Counted from the first letter of the stretch, positions 2,100 through 62,028 are shown. The stretch: DNA of 64,000 nt from Candidatus Omnitrophota bacterium (GCA_015233145.1 JADFYI010000001.1:15345-79344); one strand, 5' to 3'. Made by a program: numbers and translations. Notes: generated by a model from the letters alone, not told the origin.

Positions 2100-3371
2100 A
2101 TGTTAGATCTTAAGTTTATTCGGGATAATGTTCAAGCCGTCCAAAAAGGCCTCGCTGCCAAGAACGCCAGGATCACTCTTGATGAGCTTCTGGCGCTGGA
2201 TGAAGAGCGCCGTAAGATTTCCATGAAAGCCGATGAGCTTCGCAGTAAAAAGAATGAAGCCAATGATGCCATATCTAAGCTCCTCAAAGAAAAGAAAGAC
2301 CCCAAAGACACGATTGCGTCCATGAAATCCATTGCCACAGACATCGATGCCTTGGAGCCGAAAATAAGAGAGCTGGATGAAAAAATTACCAATATTCTTC
2401 TTTTTATCCCCAACCTTCCGTATGCGTCGGTTCCCGTGGGCGGGCCTGAAAACAACAGGGAAGTCCGTTCTTGGGGCCAGATGCGTAAATTTGATTTTAA
2501 GCCCAAGGATCATATTGCCCTGGCAGAATCCCTTGATATGATCGATTTCAAACGCGCCACCAAAATCAGCGGCGCGAATTTTATTCTTTATAAGAAGGCT
2601 GGCGCACTTTTGGAACGCGCGCTTATCAATTTCATGTTGGATTTGCATACCCGGGAACATGGGTATATAGAAGTTTTTCCTCCGGTCTTGGTCAATGCCG
2701 CGTCCATGACCGGCACAGGACAGCTCCCTAAGATGAAAGATGATATGTATTATCTGGCAGGGGATGACCTTTACCTTATTCCTACGGCCGAGGTTCCTGT
2801 CACGAATATTTATCGTGATGAGATCCTGGATGAAAAAGACCTTCCCATCTATCACACTGCGTATTCTGATTGTTTCCGCAGGGAAGCTGGTTCTTATGGC
2901 AAGGATACCCGGGGGCTCATGCGTGTGCATCAGTTTAACAAGGTGGAGCTGGTCAAGTTTGTAAAGCCTGAAACATCCTATGACGAGCTTGAAAAACTTG
3001 TGAATAATGCGGAAAAGGTTTTTCAACTTTTAAATATTCCGTACCGCGTGCTTGAGCTGGCCGCGGGGGATATGAGTTTTGCCGCTGCCAAATGCTATGA
3101 CCTTGAGGTTTTTGCTCCGGGCCTGGATAAGTGGCTTGAGGCGTCAAGCTGTTCGAATTTCGAGGATTTTCAGGCCAGGCGCGCAGGCATTCGTTACAAG
3201 GGCAAAGACATGAAAAAACCTGCCTTTGTGCATACCTTAAACGGCTCAGGTGTTGCGACTCCAAGGACAGTGGTGGCCATTATGGAGAATTACCAACAGG
3301 CCGACGGCACAATTGAAGTGCCCCAGGTTTTAAGGCCCTATATGAACGGCCTTGCCGTGATTAAAAAATAG
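2100..3371 (+). CDS. serS: seryl-tRNA synthetase
   Basis: N-terminal coiled-coil arm ([10 protein letters not shown]...). Class II motifs [26 protein letters not shown] and [18 protein letters not shown]. Confidence 0.97.
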
Positions 3372-3383
3372 AGAGGGAGGAAC

Positions 3384-3980
3384 ATGAAGGATACTCTTTT
3401 TTTAATTCTTAAATTTGTTTTTGCGCTCATTATTCTTCCGGTTGTGGTGGCATTGACTTTTGCCTTTCAAAATGAGCTTGCGACTTTTGAACCTGCGCTT
3501 CGCCATACATTATGGCAGGGCATGGTAACGTATGTCCTTCTTCGCTTTTTTGTTTATGACTTCAGCGCAGTCTATGCCTTTGGCCAGGGGATCGTGACAT
3601 CTGTTTTTCAGTTTTTGAAGCCTTTGGTGAATGCGGCACCGTATGTTTTGCCGATTTATACCATCCTTGTTCTTTTGGTTTATGCCGTAATTTCTGTCAT
3701 GGGGAAACTTTCAGGATATGAGAGCGTTTTTATTTTTCTTTTTGCGTTTACGTTTACCATGCATATTGTCCTGACCGCCCAGGACCTTTACAAGAAGGAT
3801 TCCATCGCCGGGAAGCCGAATTACTTTTTCAGCATGATTTTGGTGTATATTTTTGATGTTTTTTTCATGGCACTTCTTATGAGCCTGATTCTCAAAGGCT
3901 TTTCATTTACCCATTTCTTCCAGGGGTTGACCGGCACATCCGCCGACATTTATCGGATGATATTTAAACAGCTTTTTTAG
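3384..3980 (+). CDS. hypothetical integral membrane protein (about 5-6 TM)
   Basis: ORF with a GGGAGG Shine-Dalgarno sequence. Hydrophobic segments run throughout and no family was recognised. Confidence 0.55.
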   Translation: MKDTLFLILKFVFALIILPVVVALTFAFQNELATFEPALRHTLWQGMVTYVLLRFFVYDFSAVYAFGQGIVTSVFQFLKPLVNAAPYVLPIYTILVLLVYAVISVMGKLSGYESVFIFLFAFTFTMHIVLTAQDLYKKDSIAGKPNYFFSMILVYIFDVFFMALLMSLILKGFSFTHFFQGLTGTSADIYRMIFKQLF

Positions 3981-3997
3981 GCCTTCCCTTTTAAAAG

Positions 3998-4025
3998 TTG
4001 TCAAAATTTAAAAAGGTTTTATAAT
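3998..4025 (+). promoter_or_regulatory. sigma70-like promoter candidate for tRNA-Ser(CGA) (TTGTCA-16 nt-TATAAT)
   Basis: TTGTCA at 3998-4003 and TATAAT at 4020-4025. The mature tRNA begins 16 nt downstream of the -10 box. Confidence 0.45.
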
Positions 4026-4040
4026 TACTTCGAAATTTTT

Positions 4041-4129
4041 GGAGAGATGCCTGAGTGGTTGAAAGGGACGGTCTCGAAAACCGTTATATCGGGTAACCGA
4101 TATCCAGGGTTCGAATCCCTGTCTCTCCG
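4041..4129 (+). tRNA. tRNA-Ser (anticodon CGA), no encoded CCA
   Basis: Manual cloverleaf: acceptor GGAGAGA/TCTCTCC+G, D stem CCT/AGG, anticodon stem ACGGT/ACCGT with loop CT-CGA-AA, long variable arm ATATCGG-GTAA-CCGATAT, T arm CAGGG-TTCGAAT-CCCTG. Confidence 0.92.
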
Positions 4130-4152
4130 TTTTTTCACCTTTGGTGAAAAAA
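4130..4152 (+). terminator. weak A/T-rich hairpin after the tRNA (TTTTTTCACC-TTT-GGTGAAAAAA)
   Basis: Perfect 10-bp inverted repeat directly after the tRNA 3' end. Only 4 GC pairs, so function is uncertain. Confidence 0.3.
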
Positions 4153-4190
4153 CAAAGCAATGGACAATAGAACAATAGATAAGGGCTCCA

Positions 4191-4655
4191 TTGAAAAGAA
4201 GGGTTTTTACTATCGGTGTTATTTTGTTTTGGGGATGCTCCTTAGTTTTTGCTGAGCCCATGTTTGCGCCAACCAAGGAGCAGGCCTTTAAATCACAGTT
4301 AATTGCTATTGTTGAATATAGCGGCTATCAATTGTTGGGGAAAATCGATTATTTCAGCGGGCCGGTGGCACGATACAAAATTATACGGATACTTAAGGGC
4401 GCTAATGTCTCCAAGGCTTTAGATGTCCGGTATGATTTTACTGACGGTTCAGCCTGTCTGCCGGAAGTTGGGTGGAAATTTTCAGAAGATTTGATGCCGA
4501 AAAAAGGTTCAAGATGGATTTTGTTTTTGAATGAAGATTCTCCAATGAAATACTGGGCGACATACAGAGGCCCTTTTGGCCGTTGGAGCGCTGATTTCAA
4601 GAACACCCTGGAAGTTGAGAACGCTTTGAGTAAAGGGCAGTTGAAAGGAGATTAG
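4191..4655 (+). CDS. hypothetical exported protein
   Basis: TTG start. Signal-peptide-like N-terminus MKRRVFTIGVILFWGCSLVFAEP. No family recognised. Confidence 0.5.
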   Translation: MKRRVFTIGVILFWGCSLVFAEPMFAPTKEQAFKSQLIAIVEYSGYQLLGKIDYFSGPVARYKIIRILKGANVSKALDVRYDFTDGSACLPEVGWKFSEDLMPKKGSRWILFLNEDSPMKYWATYRGPFGRWSADFKNTLEVENALSKGQLKGD

Positions 4656-4656
4656 C

Positions 4657-5175
4657 ATGGCATTAATTCACTGTCCCGAATGCAATGAACAAATTAGCGA
4701 TAAAGCCTTGGCTTGCCCCAAATGCGGACATCCGAGAATGTCTCAATTGATGGGATGGCGGGCGTTAGGGTTTGAATGGAAAACCAAAGAAGAGGTTTTT
4801 GGCTGGCCGTTGATCCATATTGCGGTTGGATTTGACAAGAAAACAGGGCGGTTGGCGGTTGCGCGAGGCATTATTGCCATTGGGCAGTTTGGGATAGGCG
4901 TTATTACTCTTGCTCAATTCGGGGTCGGACTGTTATTTGGATTAGGACAGTTTGTCGCGGGTTTTTGTGTGATCGGCCAATTTGCATTTGGCATTTTTTT
5001 CGGTTTGGGGCAAATTGCCACGGGAATGACAGCCATAGGGCAGTTTGGTTTTGGGCAGTATGTCCGCGCCATGGCGGGAATCGGCCAGCATTTATGGACA
5101 ATGAAGATCAAAGATCCTGAGGCCGTTGAACATTTTAGAAAGTTTTTTGATGTTTTAAAGCTTCATGCAGGTTGA
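4657..5175 (+). CDS. zinc-ribbon protein with a C-terminal glycine-rich GQF-repeat membrane region
   Basis: N-terminal CPECNEQISDKALACPKCGHP (CxxC-x13-CxxC). It is followed by six or more iterations of (I/L)GQF(G/A/V)xG within hydrophobic sequence. Confidence 0.7.
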   Translation: MALIHCPECNEQISDKALACPKCGHPRMSQLMGWRALGFEWKTKEEVFGWPLIHIAVGFDKKTGRLAVARGIIAIGQFGIGVITLAQFGVGLLFGLGQFVAGFCVIGQFAFGIFFGLGQIATGMTAIGQFGFGQYVRAMAGIGQHLWTMKIKDPEAVEHFRKFFDVLKLHAG

Positions 5176-5186
5176 ATTTTGAGTTA
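5142..5186 (+). repeat. 45-bp direct repeat, copy 1 (3' end and stop of the 4657..5175 gene)
   Basis: GTTTTTTGATGTTTTAAAGCTTCATGCAGGTTGAATTTTGAGTTA matches 6554..6598 at 43 of 45 positions. Confidence 0.9.
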
Positions 5187-5189
5187 GCC

Positions 5190-6368
5190 TCACAGAAGGT
5201 TACAGCCTTGAGAAAATAGCAGGGCATAAAAGATCAAGCCAGCGGTCATGAGGAAAGTCAAAACAATATCCACTGATTTGTTTTTTGAAAGCACTGCCAT
5301 GGATAAAAAGAGCGGGAAGACCGTTGACATGTGCCGGGCACAACTCAATAACCAAAAGATGGAATAAATATAGAAAATGAAAGAAAGAGAATAAATAACA
5401 TATGAAAGACGTACTCGTTTCATAGTTATAAAAATTAAAATTAAAGCCATGAAAAAAGAAACCAGTTGTGGGCCCCAAAGAACAAGACTATCAATGGATT
5501 TATCAATGAATGTCCTGTTTATCAAGTCTTTGATATTATCCATGATTGGAATATAATGAACATACCATTGCGTCTTCTTGAAATATATGAATTTCCACCA
5601 ATCGTCAAATATCAGTTTATTAATAAGCAGATAAATAAAAACCCCTAGACTCAGCCCCAATACAACGAAACTTCTATTGAACAGGTCTTTTGCCCAAGGC
5701 CCATAAAGTTTATTTTTTATTATTTCTAGAATATTGACTTCCTGCATATATTCCACAATGAGTATAATTCCTAAAAAAGGCCCCGTATTAGGACGGGTCA
5801 ACACGGCCATCATCGCAAGAATTCCAGAGTAAACCCAGGCTTTCGTTCTCAGGAAATAAGTCGCCCCCACAAATAAAGCCAGAAACAGGCCCTCGCTAAA
5901 TGTGATACTGAGGAAAAAAGAAAAAGGATATACCAATAAATATTTCACTGCACGCCAGGCCGTGTCTGAGTCATAGTCTAAGGACGCCAGCTTGTATAAA
6001 AATAATCCTCCAATAATAAGACTTAGGTTAGATACCAGCAGGCCTGCCAGGAAAAGGTCATGAACTAAGCCGCCAAGAAATCTTATAAACAGAGGGTACA
6101 GGGGGCCAAAAACAATGAGGGACTGCCTATCAACAGGGGCAGATGCGGGCGGATATCCTTCCTGGGCAATAGAAAGATAATGGTAAGAATCCCAATGGTT
6201 CCAAAGTCCGTTCATGGATGGCCAAAAAGGATCTATCTTGTGCTGAAAAAAGATCAAACCAGCATAGGCTGTAAAGAAAATTATCAGGCGTGAAGCAATA
6301 ACAATCAGCGCAATAGAACCTAATATTTTTAAGTCGGCTTTGTGTTTTTGAATGATTTCTTGTATCAT
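5190..6368 (-). CDS. polytopic membrane glycosyltransferase candidate (GT-C fold, PIG-V / mannosyltransferase-2-like)
   Basis: 392-aa ORF with about 10 TM segments. It has WNHWDSYHYLSIAQEGYPP after TM1, resembling the WD..WY..IA..GY loop of PIG-V-type GT-C enzymes. The gene is visibly AT-richer than its neighbours. Confidence 0.6.
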   Translation of the reverse strand: MIQEIIQKHKADLKILGSIALIVIASRLIIFFTAYAGLIFFQHKIDPFWPSMNGLWNHWDSYHYLSIAQEGYPPASAPVDRQSLIVFGPLYPLFIRFLGGLVHDLFLAGLLVSNLSLIIGGLFLYKLASLDYDSDTAWRAVKYLLVYPFSFFLSITFSEGLFLALFVGATYFLRTKAWVYSGILAMMAVLTRPNTGPFLGIILIVEYMQEVNILEIIKNKLYGPWAKDLFNRSFVVLGLSLGVFIYLLINKLIFDDWWKFIYFKKTQWYVHYIPIMDNIKDLINRTFIDKSIDSLVLWGPQLVSFFMALILIFITMKRVRLSYVIYSLSFIFYIYSIFWLLSCARHMSTVFPLFLSMAVLSKNKSVDIVLTFLMTAGLIFYALLFSQGCNLL

Positions 6369-6422
6369 CGATCAGTCAGGAAGAATTTTAATTTTAAATA
6401 AAAATCTGCAGAAATTTAGAAA

Positions 6423-6587
6423 ATTATAACACAACAATCCATTTTATGCCCCTTTTATGTGGTCTCCGGCGCGGCATCGCGTATCTCGCGTTATCCGACG
6501 AGAGAATATGCCTTCTGCAGGGCTGATGAATCCGTATGCAAAGATGCCGAAGGGTTTTTTGATATTTTAAAGCTTCATGCGGGTTGA
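6423..6587 (+). pseudogene. start-less relic of a paralogue of the 4657..5175 gene (3' end only)
   Basis: The open frame ends ...CKDAEGFFDILKLHAG*, against ...KDPEAVEHFRKFFDVLKLHAG* for the intact gene. No ATG or Shine-Dalgarno sequence was found, and similarity is confined to about the last 15 codons. Confidence 0.35.
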
Positions 6588-6598
6588 ATTTTGAGTTA
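6554..6598 (+). repeat. 45-bp direct repeat, copy 2
   Basis: GTTTTTTGATATTTTAAAGCTTCATGCGGGTTGAATTTTGAGTTA matches 5142..5186 at 43 of 45 positions. Confidence 0.9.
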
Positions 6599-6684
6599 TT
6601 AATGGTATATTAACTTGCGAATTTGAAGTCAATGATTTCTCGAGTGGAAATAAATTTTTTAAAAGAATATTTGAGTTTTTAGGC

Positions 6685-6845
6685 GAGACATCTGTTTGCC
6701 GTCAAGCTGTAAGCTTGTCGATGCCAACAGATGTCTCCAAAAATTCTGTAGAAAAAGACATTGAGGAAACTCCAGTCTGCCCGTCAAACTGATGGTTTGT
6801 CGTGGCAGACTGGAGTCTCCAAAAATGTCGGAGACATTTTTGGAG
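6685..6845 (+). repeat. two tandem hairpin units plus a tRNA-leader hairpin
   Basis: Unit A has outer stem 6685-6696/6726-6737 (12 bp) and inner stem 6703-6708/6712-6717. Unit B has outer stem 6769-6781/6804-6816 (13 bp) and inner stem 6785-6789/6795-6799. Both contain CCGTCAARCTG and TTGTCG, and both end in GTCTCCAAAAAT. A third hairpin, CTCCAAAAATGTC-GGA-GACATTTTTGGAG (6817-6845), overlaps tRNA nt 1-4. Confidence 0.75.
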
Positions 6846-6929
6846 AGGTGGCTGAGCGGCCGAAAGCGGCGGTCTTGAAAACCGTTGACCCGCAAGGGTC
6901 CGTGAGTTCGAATCTCACCCTCTCCGCCA
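6842..6929 (+). tRNA. tRNA-Ser (anticodon UGA), CCA encoded
   Basis: Acceptor GGAGAGG/CCTCTCC+G+CCA, D stem GCT/AGC, anticodon stem GCGGT/ACCGT with loop CT-TGA-AA, long variable arm, T arm GTGAG-TTCGAAT-CTCAC. Confidence 0.92.
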
Positions 6930-7006
6930 GATTAAAACATCGTTATGTAAATAACGATTTGACATAGAGTTACGATAATCAAGCCGTTATTGCGGAAAAA
7001 GTCTTC

Positions 7007-7753
7007 ATGAAAAAAATCATGATTTGTGCGTCGATACAACAGGGTTTAGGTCTTTGGTTTATTATCTTATTTTTTGTTTTCGGAAATATGCCGGTGGTAA
7101 AAGCGGAAGATATTTCTGCCCTAAATGGGGCAACGTATACTCATCATTCTGATTCAGCGATGCTCAAATCAGACGAGGAACTCGTTATCCAGGGGGACAC
7201 GCTTGTCTGTAGGAATCGAATCACATGGGCTTCGCCCGACATCGCTGACTCCATTGCAACGGGAACCAACGGATTTCGTCGTCAGATAATTGGAGAATGG
7301 GGAGAAATTGCTCGGATGCCAATCGTAGGGAGTGAAGCCCGTTGGCATAACTCTGAGGGGGAGTATATCTTTACAATTAGTGAAGACGGCAGCAGCATAA
7401 CCAAAAAAGAGAGTGGTGGAAGTAGTGTCTTTGAACGTAGCGGCACCACCCCTTCAGCCGACAAAGTCCAAGCGCATGGCGGCCATGCCTATCCGGCGGA
7501 CTGCGGGCCGACAGAACCGAACCGGACGGCTCCGATAACAACGGATCTATGTCCAGGGAATCTTGTGGCCATGACCTACTTTTGCGGCGGGAATACCGGA
7601 TGCCCTTACGTGTGTTGCCCGAAGGGGCTTCCTTATTTAAACCATTGCGATTGCAAATGCTATGCGACGACAGATTTCGAATGCGGTTCGCATTCAGTGT
7701 GTCAAGTTCAACAAAGGCAGCAACACTCAATAACCTCTTCGCTGAATTGGTGA
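7007..7753 (+). CDS. hypothetical exported protein with a cysteine-rich C-terminal region
   Basis: Signal-like N-terminus (...FFVFGNMPVVKAED). About 13 Cys fall in a roughly 70-aa stretch of the C-terminal third (CGPTEPN...CPGN...FCGGNTGCPYVCCPKG...HCDCKCY...ECGSHSVC). Confidence 0.55.
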   Translation: MKKIMICASIQQGLGLWFIILFFVFGNMPVVKAEDISALNGATYTHHSDSAMLKSDEELVIQGDTLVCRNRITWASPDIADSIATGTNGFRRQIIGEWGEIARMPIVGSEARWHNSEGEYIFTISEDGSSITKKESGGSSVFERSGTTPSADKVQAHGGHAYPADCGPTEPNRTAPITTDLCPGNLVAMTYFCGGNTGCPYVCCPKGLPYLNHCDCKCYATTDFECGSHSVCQVQQRQQHSITSSLNW

Positions 7754-30140: not shown

Positions 30141-30310
30141 ATGTGATGTTGGCGACTGGAATTTTTCGAGCGGTGTCGGTCGAGTGAGCGGGTATGGTTT
30201 TGTCGTCACTTGAGTGACGACAAAGAGCGAACGAGACCGTCAAGTGCCGGCCGCCACGCTGGGACGGCCAAACGTCCGCGAGAAAAATGTAAGAAGCCAA
30301 CAGATCACAT
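30141..30310 (+). repeat. 170-nt rod-like imperfect palindrome in the sufB-sufC spacer
   Basis: Outer stem ATGTGAT-GTTGGC (30141-30153) pairs with GCCAACAGATCACAT (30296-30310). A second tier pairs TTTTTC..GCGG with CCGC..GAAAAA. The central perfect hairpin is TTGTCGTCAC-TTGA-GTGACGACAA (30200-30223). Confidence 0.8.
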
Positions 30311-61926: not shown

Positions 61927-61949
61927 TTTTCCTTTTGTAGTCTTTTTAA

Positions 61950-61984
61950 ATGGCCCTCGTTTCTGGAATAGAAACGAGGGCCAT
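61950..61984 (+). terminator. strong hairpin terminator candidate
   Basis: ATGGCCCTCGTTTCT-GGAAT-AGAAACGAGGGCCAT forms a perfect 15-bp stem. The T tract after it is weak (TCATTTCC). Confidence 0.6.
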
Positions 61985-62028
61985 TCATTTCCTTGTAAGT
62001 GTCTTTGGAAATGAACGACGAAGTTAAA

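Follow-up and report, generated by a model that had tools for sequence, protein, structure and literature searches.

Two tandem hairpin units, A and B, followed by a third hairpin that reaches into the tRNA itself, lie directly upstream of the tRNA-Ser(UGA) gene in a 64,000-nt stretch of Candidatus Omnitrophota bacterium DNA (GCA_015233145.1 JADFYI010000001.1:15345-79344; hereafter the window). The hairpin units and the leader hairpin are real features of this sequence, and we read the units, at a probability of roughly 0.4, as a transferable pre-tRNA leader module that would gate the 5' processing of the downstream tRNA. A preliminary description of the locus had recorded the hairpins and overlooked what appears to be their key feature, namely that the tail of every unit is, by predicted base pairing, complementary to the leader/tRNA junction of its cognate gene.

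Anatomy of the units and the leader hairpin

The features of the module are given below, with bit scores from a covariance model that was built from three serine-type units (A and B of the window, and one from a second genome, L038).

6655-6684, plus strand: 5' flank of unit A, TTTTTTAAAAGAATATTTGAGTTTTTAGGC; its T-run (6676-6680) is able to pair with the A-run that follows unit A
6685-6737, plus strand: unit A hairpin, with an outer stem of 12 bp, a T.T mismatch in the apex CCGTCAAGCTGTAAGCTTGTCG, and basal GAGAC/GTCTC; 77.4 bits
6733-6744, plus strand: tail of unit A, GTCTCCAAAAAT; 6734-6744 is complementary to 6836-6846 (11 nt, 100%)
6745-6764, plus strand: conserved spacer, TCTGTAGAAAAAGACATTGA; GACATT at 6757-6762 can pair with AATGTC at 6824-6829
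6765-6820, plus strand: unit B hairpin (GGAAAC...GTCTCC), with a 17-nt outer helix containing one A.C, and apex CGTCAAACTGATGGTTTGTCG at 6782-6802; 87.8 bits
6815-6829, plus strand: tail of unit B, GTCTCCAAAAATGTC, the switching strand; pairs with 6757-6770 (closing unit B) or with 6833-6846 (leader hairpin)
6816-6846, plus strand: leader hairpin of 14 perfect bp, arms 6816-6829 and 6833-6846, loop GGA at 6830-6832; present in the full-length minimum free energy (MFE) folds

Checked against the sequence, both units stand where the preliminary description had placed them and have the 12- and 13-bp outer stems that it gave. In unit A, GAGACATCTGTT (6685-6696) pairs with AACAGATGTCTC (6726-6737), a helix extendable to 15 nt at 93%, and in unit B ACTCCAGTCTGCC (6769-6781) pairs with GGCAGACTGGAGT (6804-6816), where extension to GGAAAC/GTCTCC gives 6765-6781 against 6804-6820 (17 nt, 94%). 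The outer stems enclose CCGTCAARCTG-NNRG-YTTGTCG, and both units terminate in GTCTCCAAAAAT. The inner stem of 5 bp runs from C6703-G6717 to C6707-G6713 in unit A and from C6785-G6799 to C6789-G6795 in unit B, above a T.T mismatch found in both units (6702/6718 and 6784/6800), and the compensatory change claimed for it (G6706-C6714 in A against A6788-T6796 in B) is correct. The outer stems had also been called entirely different, which they are not: TCTG/CAGA is common to both, and their bases are alike (GAGAC/GTCTC in A, GGAAAC/GTCTCC in B).

The predicted fold of 6675-6850 (176 nt) reaches -83 kcal/mol against -44 +/- 4 in shuffles (z -9.39), with the minus strand folding equally well (z -9.52), and by strength the three hairpins fall within the top seven short-range inverted repeats of the 64 kb (I1, I5 and I7 of 17). 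Tail and core motifs are over-represented in the window. The tail motif GTCTCCAAAAAT occurs five times with at most one mismatch, against 0.92 expected (0/100 shuffles reach 5), and the core-plus-tail pattern occurs twice against 0.00 expected.

The tRNA-Ser(UGA) gene occupies 6842-6929 on the plus strand (ARAGORN and the Rfam tRNA model, 58.7 bits). Because it starts at 6842, tRNA positions 1-5 lie within the 3' arm of the leader hairpin, which buries leader positions -1 to -9 together with tRNA positions +1 to +5 and encloses the 6841/6842 bond at which RNase P would cut. The earlier account of a hairpin over the tRNA 5' end thus stands as to location and pairing, and its extent is amended to 14 bp covering tRNA positions 1-5. 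The target of the unit A tail, 6836-6846, is likewise the T-run of the leader plus tRNA positions 1-5.

The tail of each unit has two possible partners by prediction, either its own 5' flank or the leader/tRNA junction. In the window, the unit B helix overlaps the 5' arm of the leader hairpin at 6816-6820, so the two folds compete. AAUGUC (6824-6829) plus UCC can moreover pair with GACAUU (6757-6762) plus GGA, lengthening unit B, and this GACATT/AATGTC pairing is present both in the fold with the acceptor stem enforced and in the stepwise fold. With the 3' end at 6829, stepwise folding gives a unit that is closed and extended, with the 5' flank of unit A paired to 6738-6746; by the time the 3' end reaches 6846, the leader hairpin has taken over as sequestor. 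The full-length MFE fold retains the sequestor and leaves the acceptor stem unformed, and in it the unit and the leader hairpin adjoin without a gap, making stacking possible. Enforcing the acceptor stem gives -84.4 kcal/mol and enforcing the leader hairpin -86.3 kcal/mol, a difference of 1.9; these and all other energies are predicted without regard to tertiary structure or modifications of the tRNA. In constrained and stepwise folds alike, one strand has two mutually exclusive partners, one of them over the RNase P site.

Homologous modules and covariation in a second genome

A homologous unit with a leader hairpin was found in L038, another Omnitrophota metagenome-assembled genome (MAG), between the stop codon of tadA and tRNA-Ser(GCU), where the module reads GGAAT-ATCCGATGGC-CCGTCAAACTGTTGGTTTGTCG-TGCCCATTGGAT-GTCTCCAAAAAA-CGC-GGA-GCG-TTTTTT|GGAGAGG. 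A further unit, TTTTTA-GCGCC-TGG-CCTCAGCC-TGTTG-GGCTTCGG-TCC-T-GGCGC-AAAAAT, precedes tRNA-Arg(ACG) of the same operon by 26 nt. It matches the covariance model weakly (17.7 bits) and is shorter, with the same loop as the Ser units and a related apex. Its base, GCGCC/GGCGC, matches the beginning of tRNA-Arg, and the Arg junction TTTT|GCGCC is complementary to its tail. In other lineages tRNA-Arg(ACG) has an acceptor 5' strand identical to the 5' arm of this unit, GCGCCTG. The module is not specific to tRNA-Ser. The L038 Arg unit and window unit A have the spacer AAAAAT(GT)TCTGTA(G)AAAA..ATTG(A/T)GG in common (score reached in 2/2000 shuffles), and their 5' flanks are homologous (19/2000 shuffles reach the score).

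The perfect complement of the junction measures 14 nt at window tRNA-Ser(UGA), 14 nt at L038 tRNA-Ser(GCU) and 9 nt (TTTTGCGCC) at L038 tRNA-Arg(ACG). No junction-spanning perfect complement of at least 6 nt was found within 200 nt upstream of any other Omnitrophota tRNA record compared, many of which are duplicate loci. Constrained folds of the L038 modules gave -77.2 kcal/mol (acceptor stem enforced) and -75.5 kcal/mol (leader hairpin enforced) for tRNA-Ser(GCU), a difference of 1.7, and -53.3 and -58.2 kcal/mol, respectively, for tRNA-Arg(ACG).

Between window unit B and the L038 Ser unit, the apex is identical at 23/24 positions, the tail at 11/12 and the mid-stem, which is paired in both, at 6/20. 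Over the two modules 98.5% of cells are paired, and nine pairs differ at both partners, of which six belong to the unit and three to the leader hairpin; only 1/500 shuffles reaches this level, and slid registers give 0-2. Seven pairs are changed on both sides across the three Ser units. In the leader hairpin, 3/13 pairs are changed on both sides in L038 and none is broken, the changes from window to L038 being U-A to A-U, G-C to C-G, and U-A to G-C. Comparison thus backs the earlier proposal that the acceptor 5' strand could be sequestered, through these three compensatory changes and through the existence of an Arg-specific version. The change in the tail from AAUGUC (window) to AACGCG (L038) is matched both upstream (GACAUU vs CGCGUU) and downstream (GACAUU vs GCGUU), so that both alternative helices persist by compensatory change, in two genomes only. 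The 3' tail is invariant among the Ser units, and the 5' sequence that it pairs with inside the unit is degenerate (GAGAC, GGAAAC and GGAAT, with a recurrent A.C), which points to selection on the pairing of tail with junction and not on a symmetric palindrome.

Genomic context and distribution

The window module belongs to a serine-decoding cluster (2100-6929) that comprises serS (2100-3371), a conserved open reading frame (ORF) of ~200 aa, tRNA-Ser(CGA) (4041-4130, with its own TTGTCA-17-TATAAT promoter) and tRNA-Ser(UGA). The 3' CCA is encoded in window tRNA-Ser(UGA) (6926-6929) and not in the L038 tRNAs (L038 6241). Upstream of the units is encoded a glycosyltransferase-like protein, 100% identical to HQL16_00140 of a Candidatus Omnitrophica MAG. 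One candidate promoter was found near the units:

6584-6611, plus strand: promoter-like site TTGAAT-16-TATATT with TG before the -10, the sole sigma-70-like match in 6300-7100

It is the only promoter-like site nearby, and the interval between unit B and tRNA-Ser(UGA) is too short for any promoter; the units would therefore lie within a transcribed leader. A start at this site should give a leader of ~220-230 nt containing both units. The processing or regulatory leader listed among possible roles in the preliminary description is supported to this extent, that the hairpins lie where a leader should be transcribed. In L038 a strong TTGTCA-16-TAGAAT promoter-like site is present upstream, and position and orientation relative to the tRNA fit a leader location in 4/4 units. 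A -10-like TATTTT that abuts the L038 tRNA-Arg was rejected as a promoter within the spacer, since transcription from it would begin within the tRNA. A scan of 16 neighbouring ORFs revealed no transposase, and no recombinase or regulator gene adjoins the units.

The covariance model retrieved no further unit in ~149 kb of Omnitrophota DNA, so that copies were seen only in tRNA leaders and in a single orientation. A covariance search of related bins had been recommended earlier, and it yielded the L038 Arg unit; the L038 Ser unit and its leader hairpin came from a pattern scan of a genome collection. The gene order tRNA-Arg(ACG)-tadA-tRNA-Ser(GCU) is kept across many Omnitrophota lineages (L038, L123-L141), and the deaminase gene thus adjoins the gene of its substrate tRNA. 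At unit-less tadA loci, tRNA-Ser starts 4-25 nt past the tadA stop. The closest relative of the window's SerRS (82% identity, L143) keeps the order Nramp-Usp-serS-~200-aa ORF and has neither tRNA-Ser genes nor a unit there, and the upstream glycosyltransferase has its nearest homologue in L001 (44% identity), at a locus that lacks both synteny and a tRNA. Look-ups by exact protein sequence gave no entry for the window's own flanking proteins or for P0001.

Rfam 15 contains no family that reaches its gathering threshold for the units, giving only sub-threshold matches to hairpins of the microRNA-precursor type. Distant blastn searches gave no match in plasmids or phages, and viral contigs gave one chance match with the core-plus-tail pattern (CGTCAA-N9-TTGTCG-N12-GTCTCC) and none with the leader-hairpin pattern. 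Among the 119 matches listed from a genome-collection scan with CCGTCAANCTGNNNNNTTGTCG, only L038 is real; with 16 fixed bases, ~280 chance matches are estimated in 596 Gb, and the scan is uninformative on the module's spread. Matches in three metagenome contigs (L120-122) were set aside as chance matches in a coding region with no tRNA, from a pattern that had 10 N where the true spacing is 9.

A covariance-model match in the window at 61942-61986 (18.7 bits) was also rejected as a unit, being an ordinary 16-bp terminator-like hairpin; its perfect arms, AATGGCCCTCGTTTCT / AGAAACGAGGGCCATT, lie at 61949-61985. Separately, a 12-bp perfect palindrome (TTTGTCGTCACT/AGTGACGACAAA) occupies an intergenic gap at 30199-30224. 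The leaders in L127 were not accepted as members, as they show unit-like logic only with bulges or mismatches and have a different apex. In L127-L132 (3477-3828, 1190-1386) an 89-aa GIY-YIG ORF lies between tadA and tRNA-Ser(GCU), the 5' end of each of the two tRNAs adjoins a stable hairpin, and tRNA-Arg is preceded by three tandem AAAGATTTAAGGA...|GCGCCTG leaders that are unit-like in architecture and imperfect in pairing. In L125 an exact 24-nt direct repeat (594-617 / 676-699) joins two T's of the leader to nucleotides 1-22 of tRNA-Ser(GGA); its upstream copy immediately follows a TTGACA-17-TACTAT promoter, runs into a degenerate anticodon-arm-like stretch and looks like a truncated pseudo-tRNA. 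Downstream of tRNA-Ser(GCU) in L135, a c-di-GMP-I-GGC riboswitch aptamer was detected at 1403-1480 (59.1 bits, just at the gathering score).

A proposed gate on the tRNA 5' end and its alternatives

In the mechanism that we propose, some Omnitrophota would carry a structured module of ~65-100 nt in the leader that is transcribed 5' of tRNA genes. Its apex is conserved in sequence (CG-U-CAARC-UGNNR-GYUUG-U-CG), its middle stem may vary provided that pairing holds, and its base imitates the start of the acceptor stem of the following tRNA. The 3' tail is complementary to the U-rich leader and the first five tRNA nucleotides (GUCUCC plus A-run for Ser, GGCGC plus A-run for Arg). With the tail on the module's own 5' flank, the tRNA would be free to fold and be cut; with the tail on the leader/tRNA junction, the RNase P site would be buried and half of the acceptor 5' strand removed. 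The module would in this way gate or delay 5' maturation of the downstream tRNA, and the conserved apex may be the site where a protein or other factor tips the balance. Transcription through the module, the effect on RNase P and the existence of such a factor are what we infer. A more specific version of this proposal, which we regard as doubtful, is a natural modular 'anti-acceptor' switch, that is, a transferable cassette with its tail matched to the following tRNA, in which a signal sensed at the apex would control RNase P processing and the supply of individual tRNAs.

The nearest known system is man-made. When a designed hairpin sequesters the leader of a pre-tRNA, RNase P is blocked both in vitro and in E. 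coli (Nucleic Acids Res 2021, PMC7897497). Like the Omnitrophota module, this synthetic RNase P riboswitch has a structured sensor directly upstream of the tRNA and a 3' strand that either closes the sensor or forms a leader sequestor blocking RNase P, and its two states were designed to be close in energy (PMC7897497), as the two folds of the Ser modules are predicted to be. It differs in binding theophylline and in masking only the single-stranded leader, whereas the sequestor of the module also takes tRNA positions +1 to +5 and the 'sensor' is a plain long hairpin. No natural counterpart of the synthetic riboswitch turned up in literature searches. Attenuator and T-box leaders resemble the module in having three segments, the middle one complementary to both neighbours, with the order of transcription picking the first helix, and T-box leaders also read the acceptor end of a tRNA. 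However, these leaders control the transcription or translation of an mRNA through terminator and anti-terminator helices, whereas the module has no terminator and no Rfam match, and the product that it controlled would be the tRNA itself. Hairpin substrates of RNase P (acceptor/T-stem minihelices and pre-4.5S RNA; see also PMC12439589) are like the units in having a U-rich leader, a G and a continuous helix of at least 12 bp whose first pairs copy the tRNA acceptor stem; the units differ from these substrates in having no T-loop and no RCCA 3' tail, with an A-run tail instead.

Several observations weigh against a gating module. The second tRNA-Ser gene of the window, tRNA-Ser(CGA), has the identical junction ATTTTT|GGAGAG and no module, and the promoter call at 6584-6611 is no better than chance, with sigma-70-like matches in 6300-7100 no more numerous than in shuffles. 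No unit was found at loci whose TadA is 92, 86, 82, 81 or 80% identical to that of L038: the module is absent from L133, the closest relative of L038 (89.5% nucleotide identity over the aligned positions of the whole operon, with an identical tRNA-Ser), and, at the tadA-tRNA-Ser locus, from four further lineages. The preliminary description had looked to conservation at the orthologous locus; in close relatives the module is missing there and behaves as an insertion/deletion block, a presence/absence pattern that is typical of insertions and unusual for a needed regulator. Wobble pairs leave the strand undecided, as L038 has two G.U on the sense strand and the A.C of unit B and that of L038 would be G.U if read antisense. 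A hairpin with only small internal loops would make a poor small-molecule pocket. We would also like to note that only four units were found, in two genomes, so that every statistic rests on very few sequences.

In the main rival reading, somewhat less probable than gating, the units are small non-autonomous palindromic insertions, MITE- or REP-like or the product of template switching, tolerated in tRNA leaders because RNase P removes the insert, with the RNA structure as a side effect (MITE, miniature inverted-repeat transposable element; REP, repetitive extragenic palindrome). Alignment of L038 with L133 shows three blocks that are lacking in L133, all within 850 bp: a block of 71 nt, the Arg unit, in the Arg leader, one of 87 nt, the Ser unit, in the Ser leader, and one of 67 nt in the tRNA-Arg trailer, which is unrelated to the other two. 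At its start, the trailer block (L038 7010-6934, minus strand) copies the pre-existing trailer perfectly in inverted orientation, TTTTTTCAAG-GATT-CTTGAAAAAA, old trailer and inverted copy together forming a perfect 10-bp palindrome. It continues with the hairpin GAGGCT..GGCGACT-AAC-AGTCGCC..AGCCTC and then TGGTGTTTT, with no sequence relation to the units. This third palindromic block with an inverted copy of its flank means that a DNA-level process could create complementarity without selection on RNA, a further point against gating. Insertion would also fit the tandem copies in the window, the module with homologous flanks before different tRNAs in different genomes, and a possible direct repeat of 5-7 nt, GTTCT(T/G)T, around the L038 Arg block. 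On the other hand, the Ser units have no evident target duplication and no clear terminal inverted repeats, their only inverted repeat being the palindrome itself; no dispersed copy was seen in the ~149 kb, where every copy is in a tRNA leader and in one orientation; no transposase was found among the neighbouring ORFs scanned; and the window is not generally rich in such palindromes. An insertion element would, in addition, need to carry tRNA-specific sequence, and a useless perfect sequestor of 13-14 bp over a tRNA 5' end should be counter-selected, yet it is kept with compensatory changes.

Palindromic MITEs are exemplified by Correia, RUP and ERIC. The module resembles both these and REPs, including the CGTC-tagged type (PMC3733652), as a short imperfect intergenic palindrome that is variably present between relatives, and REPs and MITEs are often transcribed and folded in RNA. 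The apex head CGTC (CCTC in the Arg unit) recalls the CGTC-tagged REPs, which likewise have a CGTC/CCTC head, a stem starting A-T and a 5-nt loop (PMC3733652). REPs, though, have stems of 8-9 bp, an unpaired head, a loop of 4-5 nt and a CCA tail, and their copies are dispersed, number in the tens to hundreds and often form inverted dimers (PMC3733652), whereas in the units CGTC is paired save for the T.T mismatch, the inner stem is 5 bp, the tail is GTCG, the flanks match the adjacent tRNA, and the 64 kb hold two copies, both in one leader and in direct orientation, with no copy away from tRNA leaders in the ~149 kb searched. The REP-like family suggested in the preliminary description accordingly falls on stem length, tail and copy pattern.

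The units could instead serve processing or stability without any switching, as double-strand nuclease sites or exonuclease blocks that would set the tRNA apart from adjacent RNA and shield the fragments set free, or as hairpin small-RNA precursors, which we hold to be improbable. The L038 blocks lie exactly on either side of the tadA mRNA, between tRNA-Arg and tRNA-Ser; every unit forms a helix of ~22-30 bp that would be able to stack on the abutting leader hairpin of the MFE fold; and REP-type hairpins stabilise upstream mRNA. However, the window leader transcript carries no ORF, so there is nothing to separate or protect, and the tRNA-specific tail, the three-way matching of partners and the strict conservation of the apex sequence would go unexplained. 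Still less probable is decay from tandemly duplicated tRNA genes, with the acceptor stem kept and the body collapsed to a hairpin. Such an origin would account for basal helices that copy the cognate acceptor stem (GCGCCTG for Arg, GGAGA-like for Ser), and it has parallels in the truncated tRNA-Ser(GGA) 5' copy of L125 (24 nt exact, 82 nt upstream of the gene), in the tandem leader-plus-GCGCCTG repeats before the L127 tRNA-Arg, and in the 3' arm of unit B (6803-6814), where GTGGCAGACTGG matches GTGGCAGAGTGG of the Omnitrophota tRNA-Ser(GCU) D-arm at 11/12. That last score is reached by 11-20/1000 shuffles, uncorrected for ~56 comparisons, and similarity past the acceptor ends is not significant after multiple testing, with both strands scoring alike; moreover, no tRNA model matches the units, and one apex in both Ser- and Arg-type units is not expected from independent decay. 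Perfect palindromes that fold equally well on both strands would also suit a function in DNA, as a cruciform or a protein-binding site controlling transcription or recombination at the tRNA gene. That reading strikes us as very improbable, as the half-sites covary rather than being conserved, the opposite of a sequence-specific operator, no recombinase or regulator gene is adjacent, and an invariant 3' tail with a degenerate 5' partner is unsuited to a symmetric DNA site.

Other classes were considered and dismissed. The preliminary description was right that the units are neither a terminator, as there is only a trivial 6-pair match inside unit B and an A-run after each unit, nor a CRISPR array, as there are two units whose 46-nt cores are 74% identical and whose variable parts are self-complementary stems and not spacers. 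They are not tRNA or tRNA-like genes (ARAGORN and the Rfam tRNA model match only the two true tRNAs), nor a hammerhead or other self-cleaving ribozyme (no conserved core, no Rfam match), nor integron attC sites (no RYYYAAC/GTTRRRY cores). A permuted or split tRNA was rejected since the downstream tRNA is complete, and mimicry of an anticodon arm by the apex since the triplets that would act as 'anticodons' (GAU, GUA and GUU) have no relation to Ser or Arg.

That a perfect sequestor persists over a presumably important tRNA favours a functional leader switch, and the switch and the tolerated insertion could be compatible, as a transferable cassette that also acts in cis. Were the units instead a selfish palindrome, it would be an unusual one, confined to tRNA leaders and carrying sequence matched to its neighbour, which raises the question of how the match arises. 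A handful of in vitro transcripts and RNase P would suffice to test the predicted gating directly. Alternative RNA folds that control the expression of bacterial mRNAs are well known. Regulation of tRNA 5' maturation by the tRNA's own leader has so far been achieved only by engineering (PMC7897497). If the gating module is confirmed, it would provide a compact, re-targetable part for synthetic biology, the supplies of individual tRNAs would be gated at the RNase P step, and the synthetic RNase P riboswitch would have its first counterpart from nature, adding a new tRNA-specific regulatory layer in bacteria.

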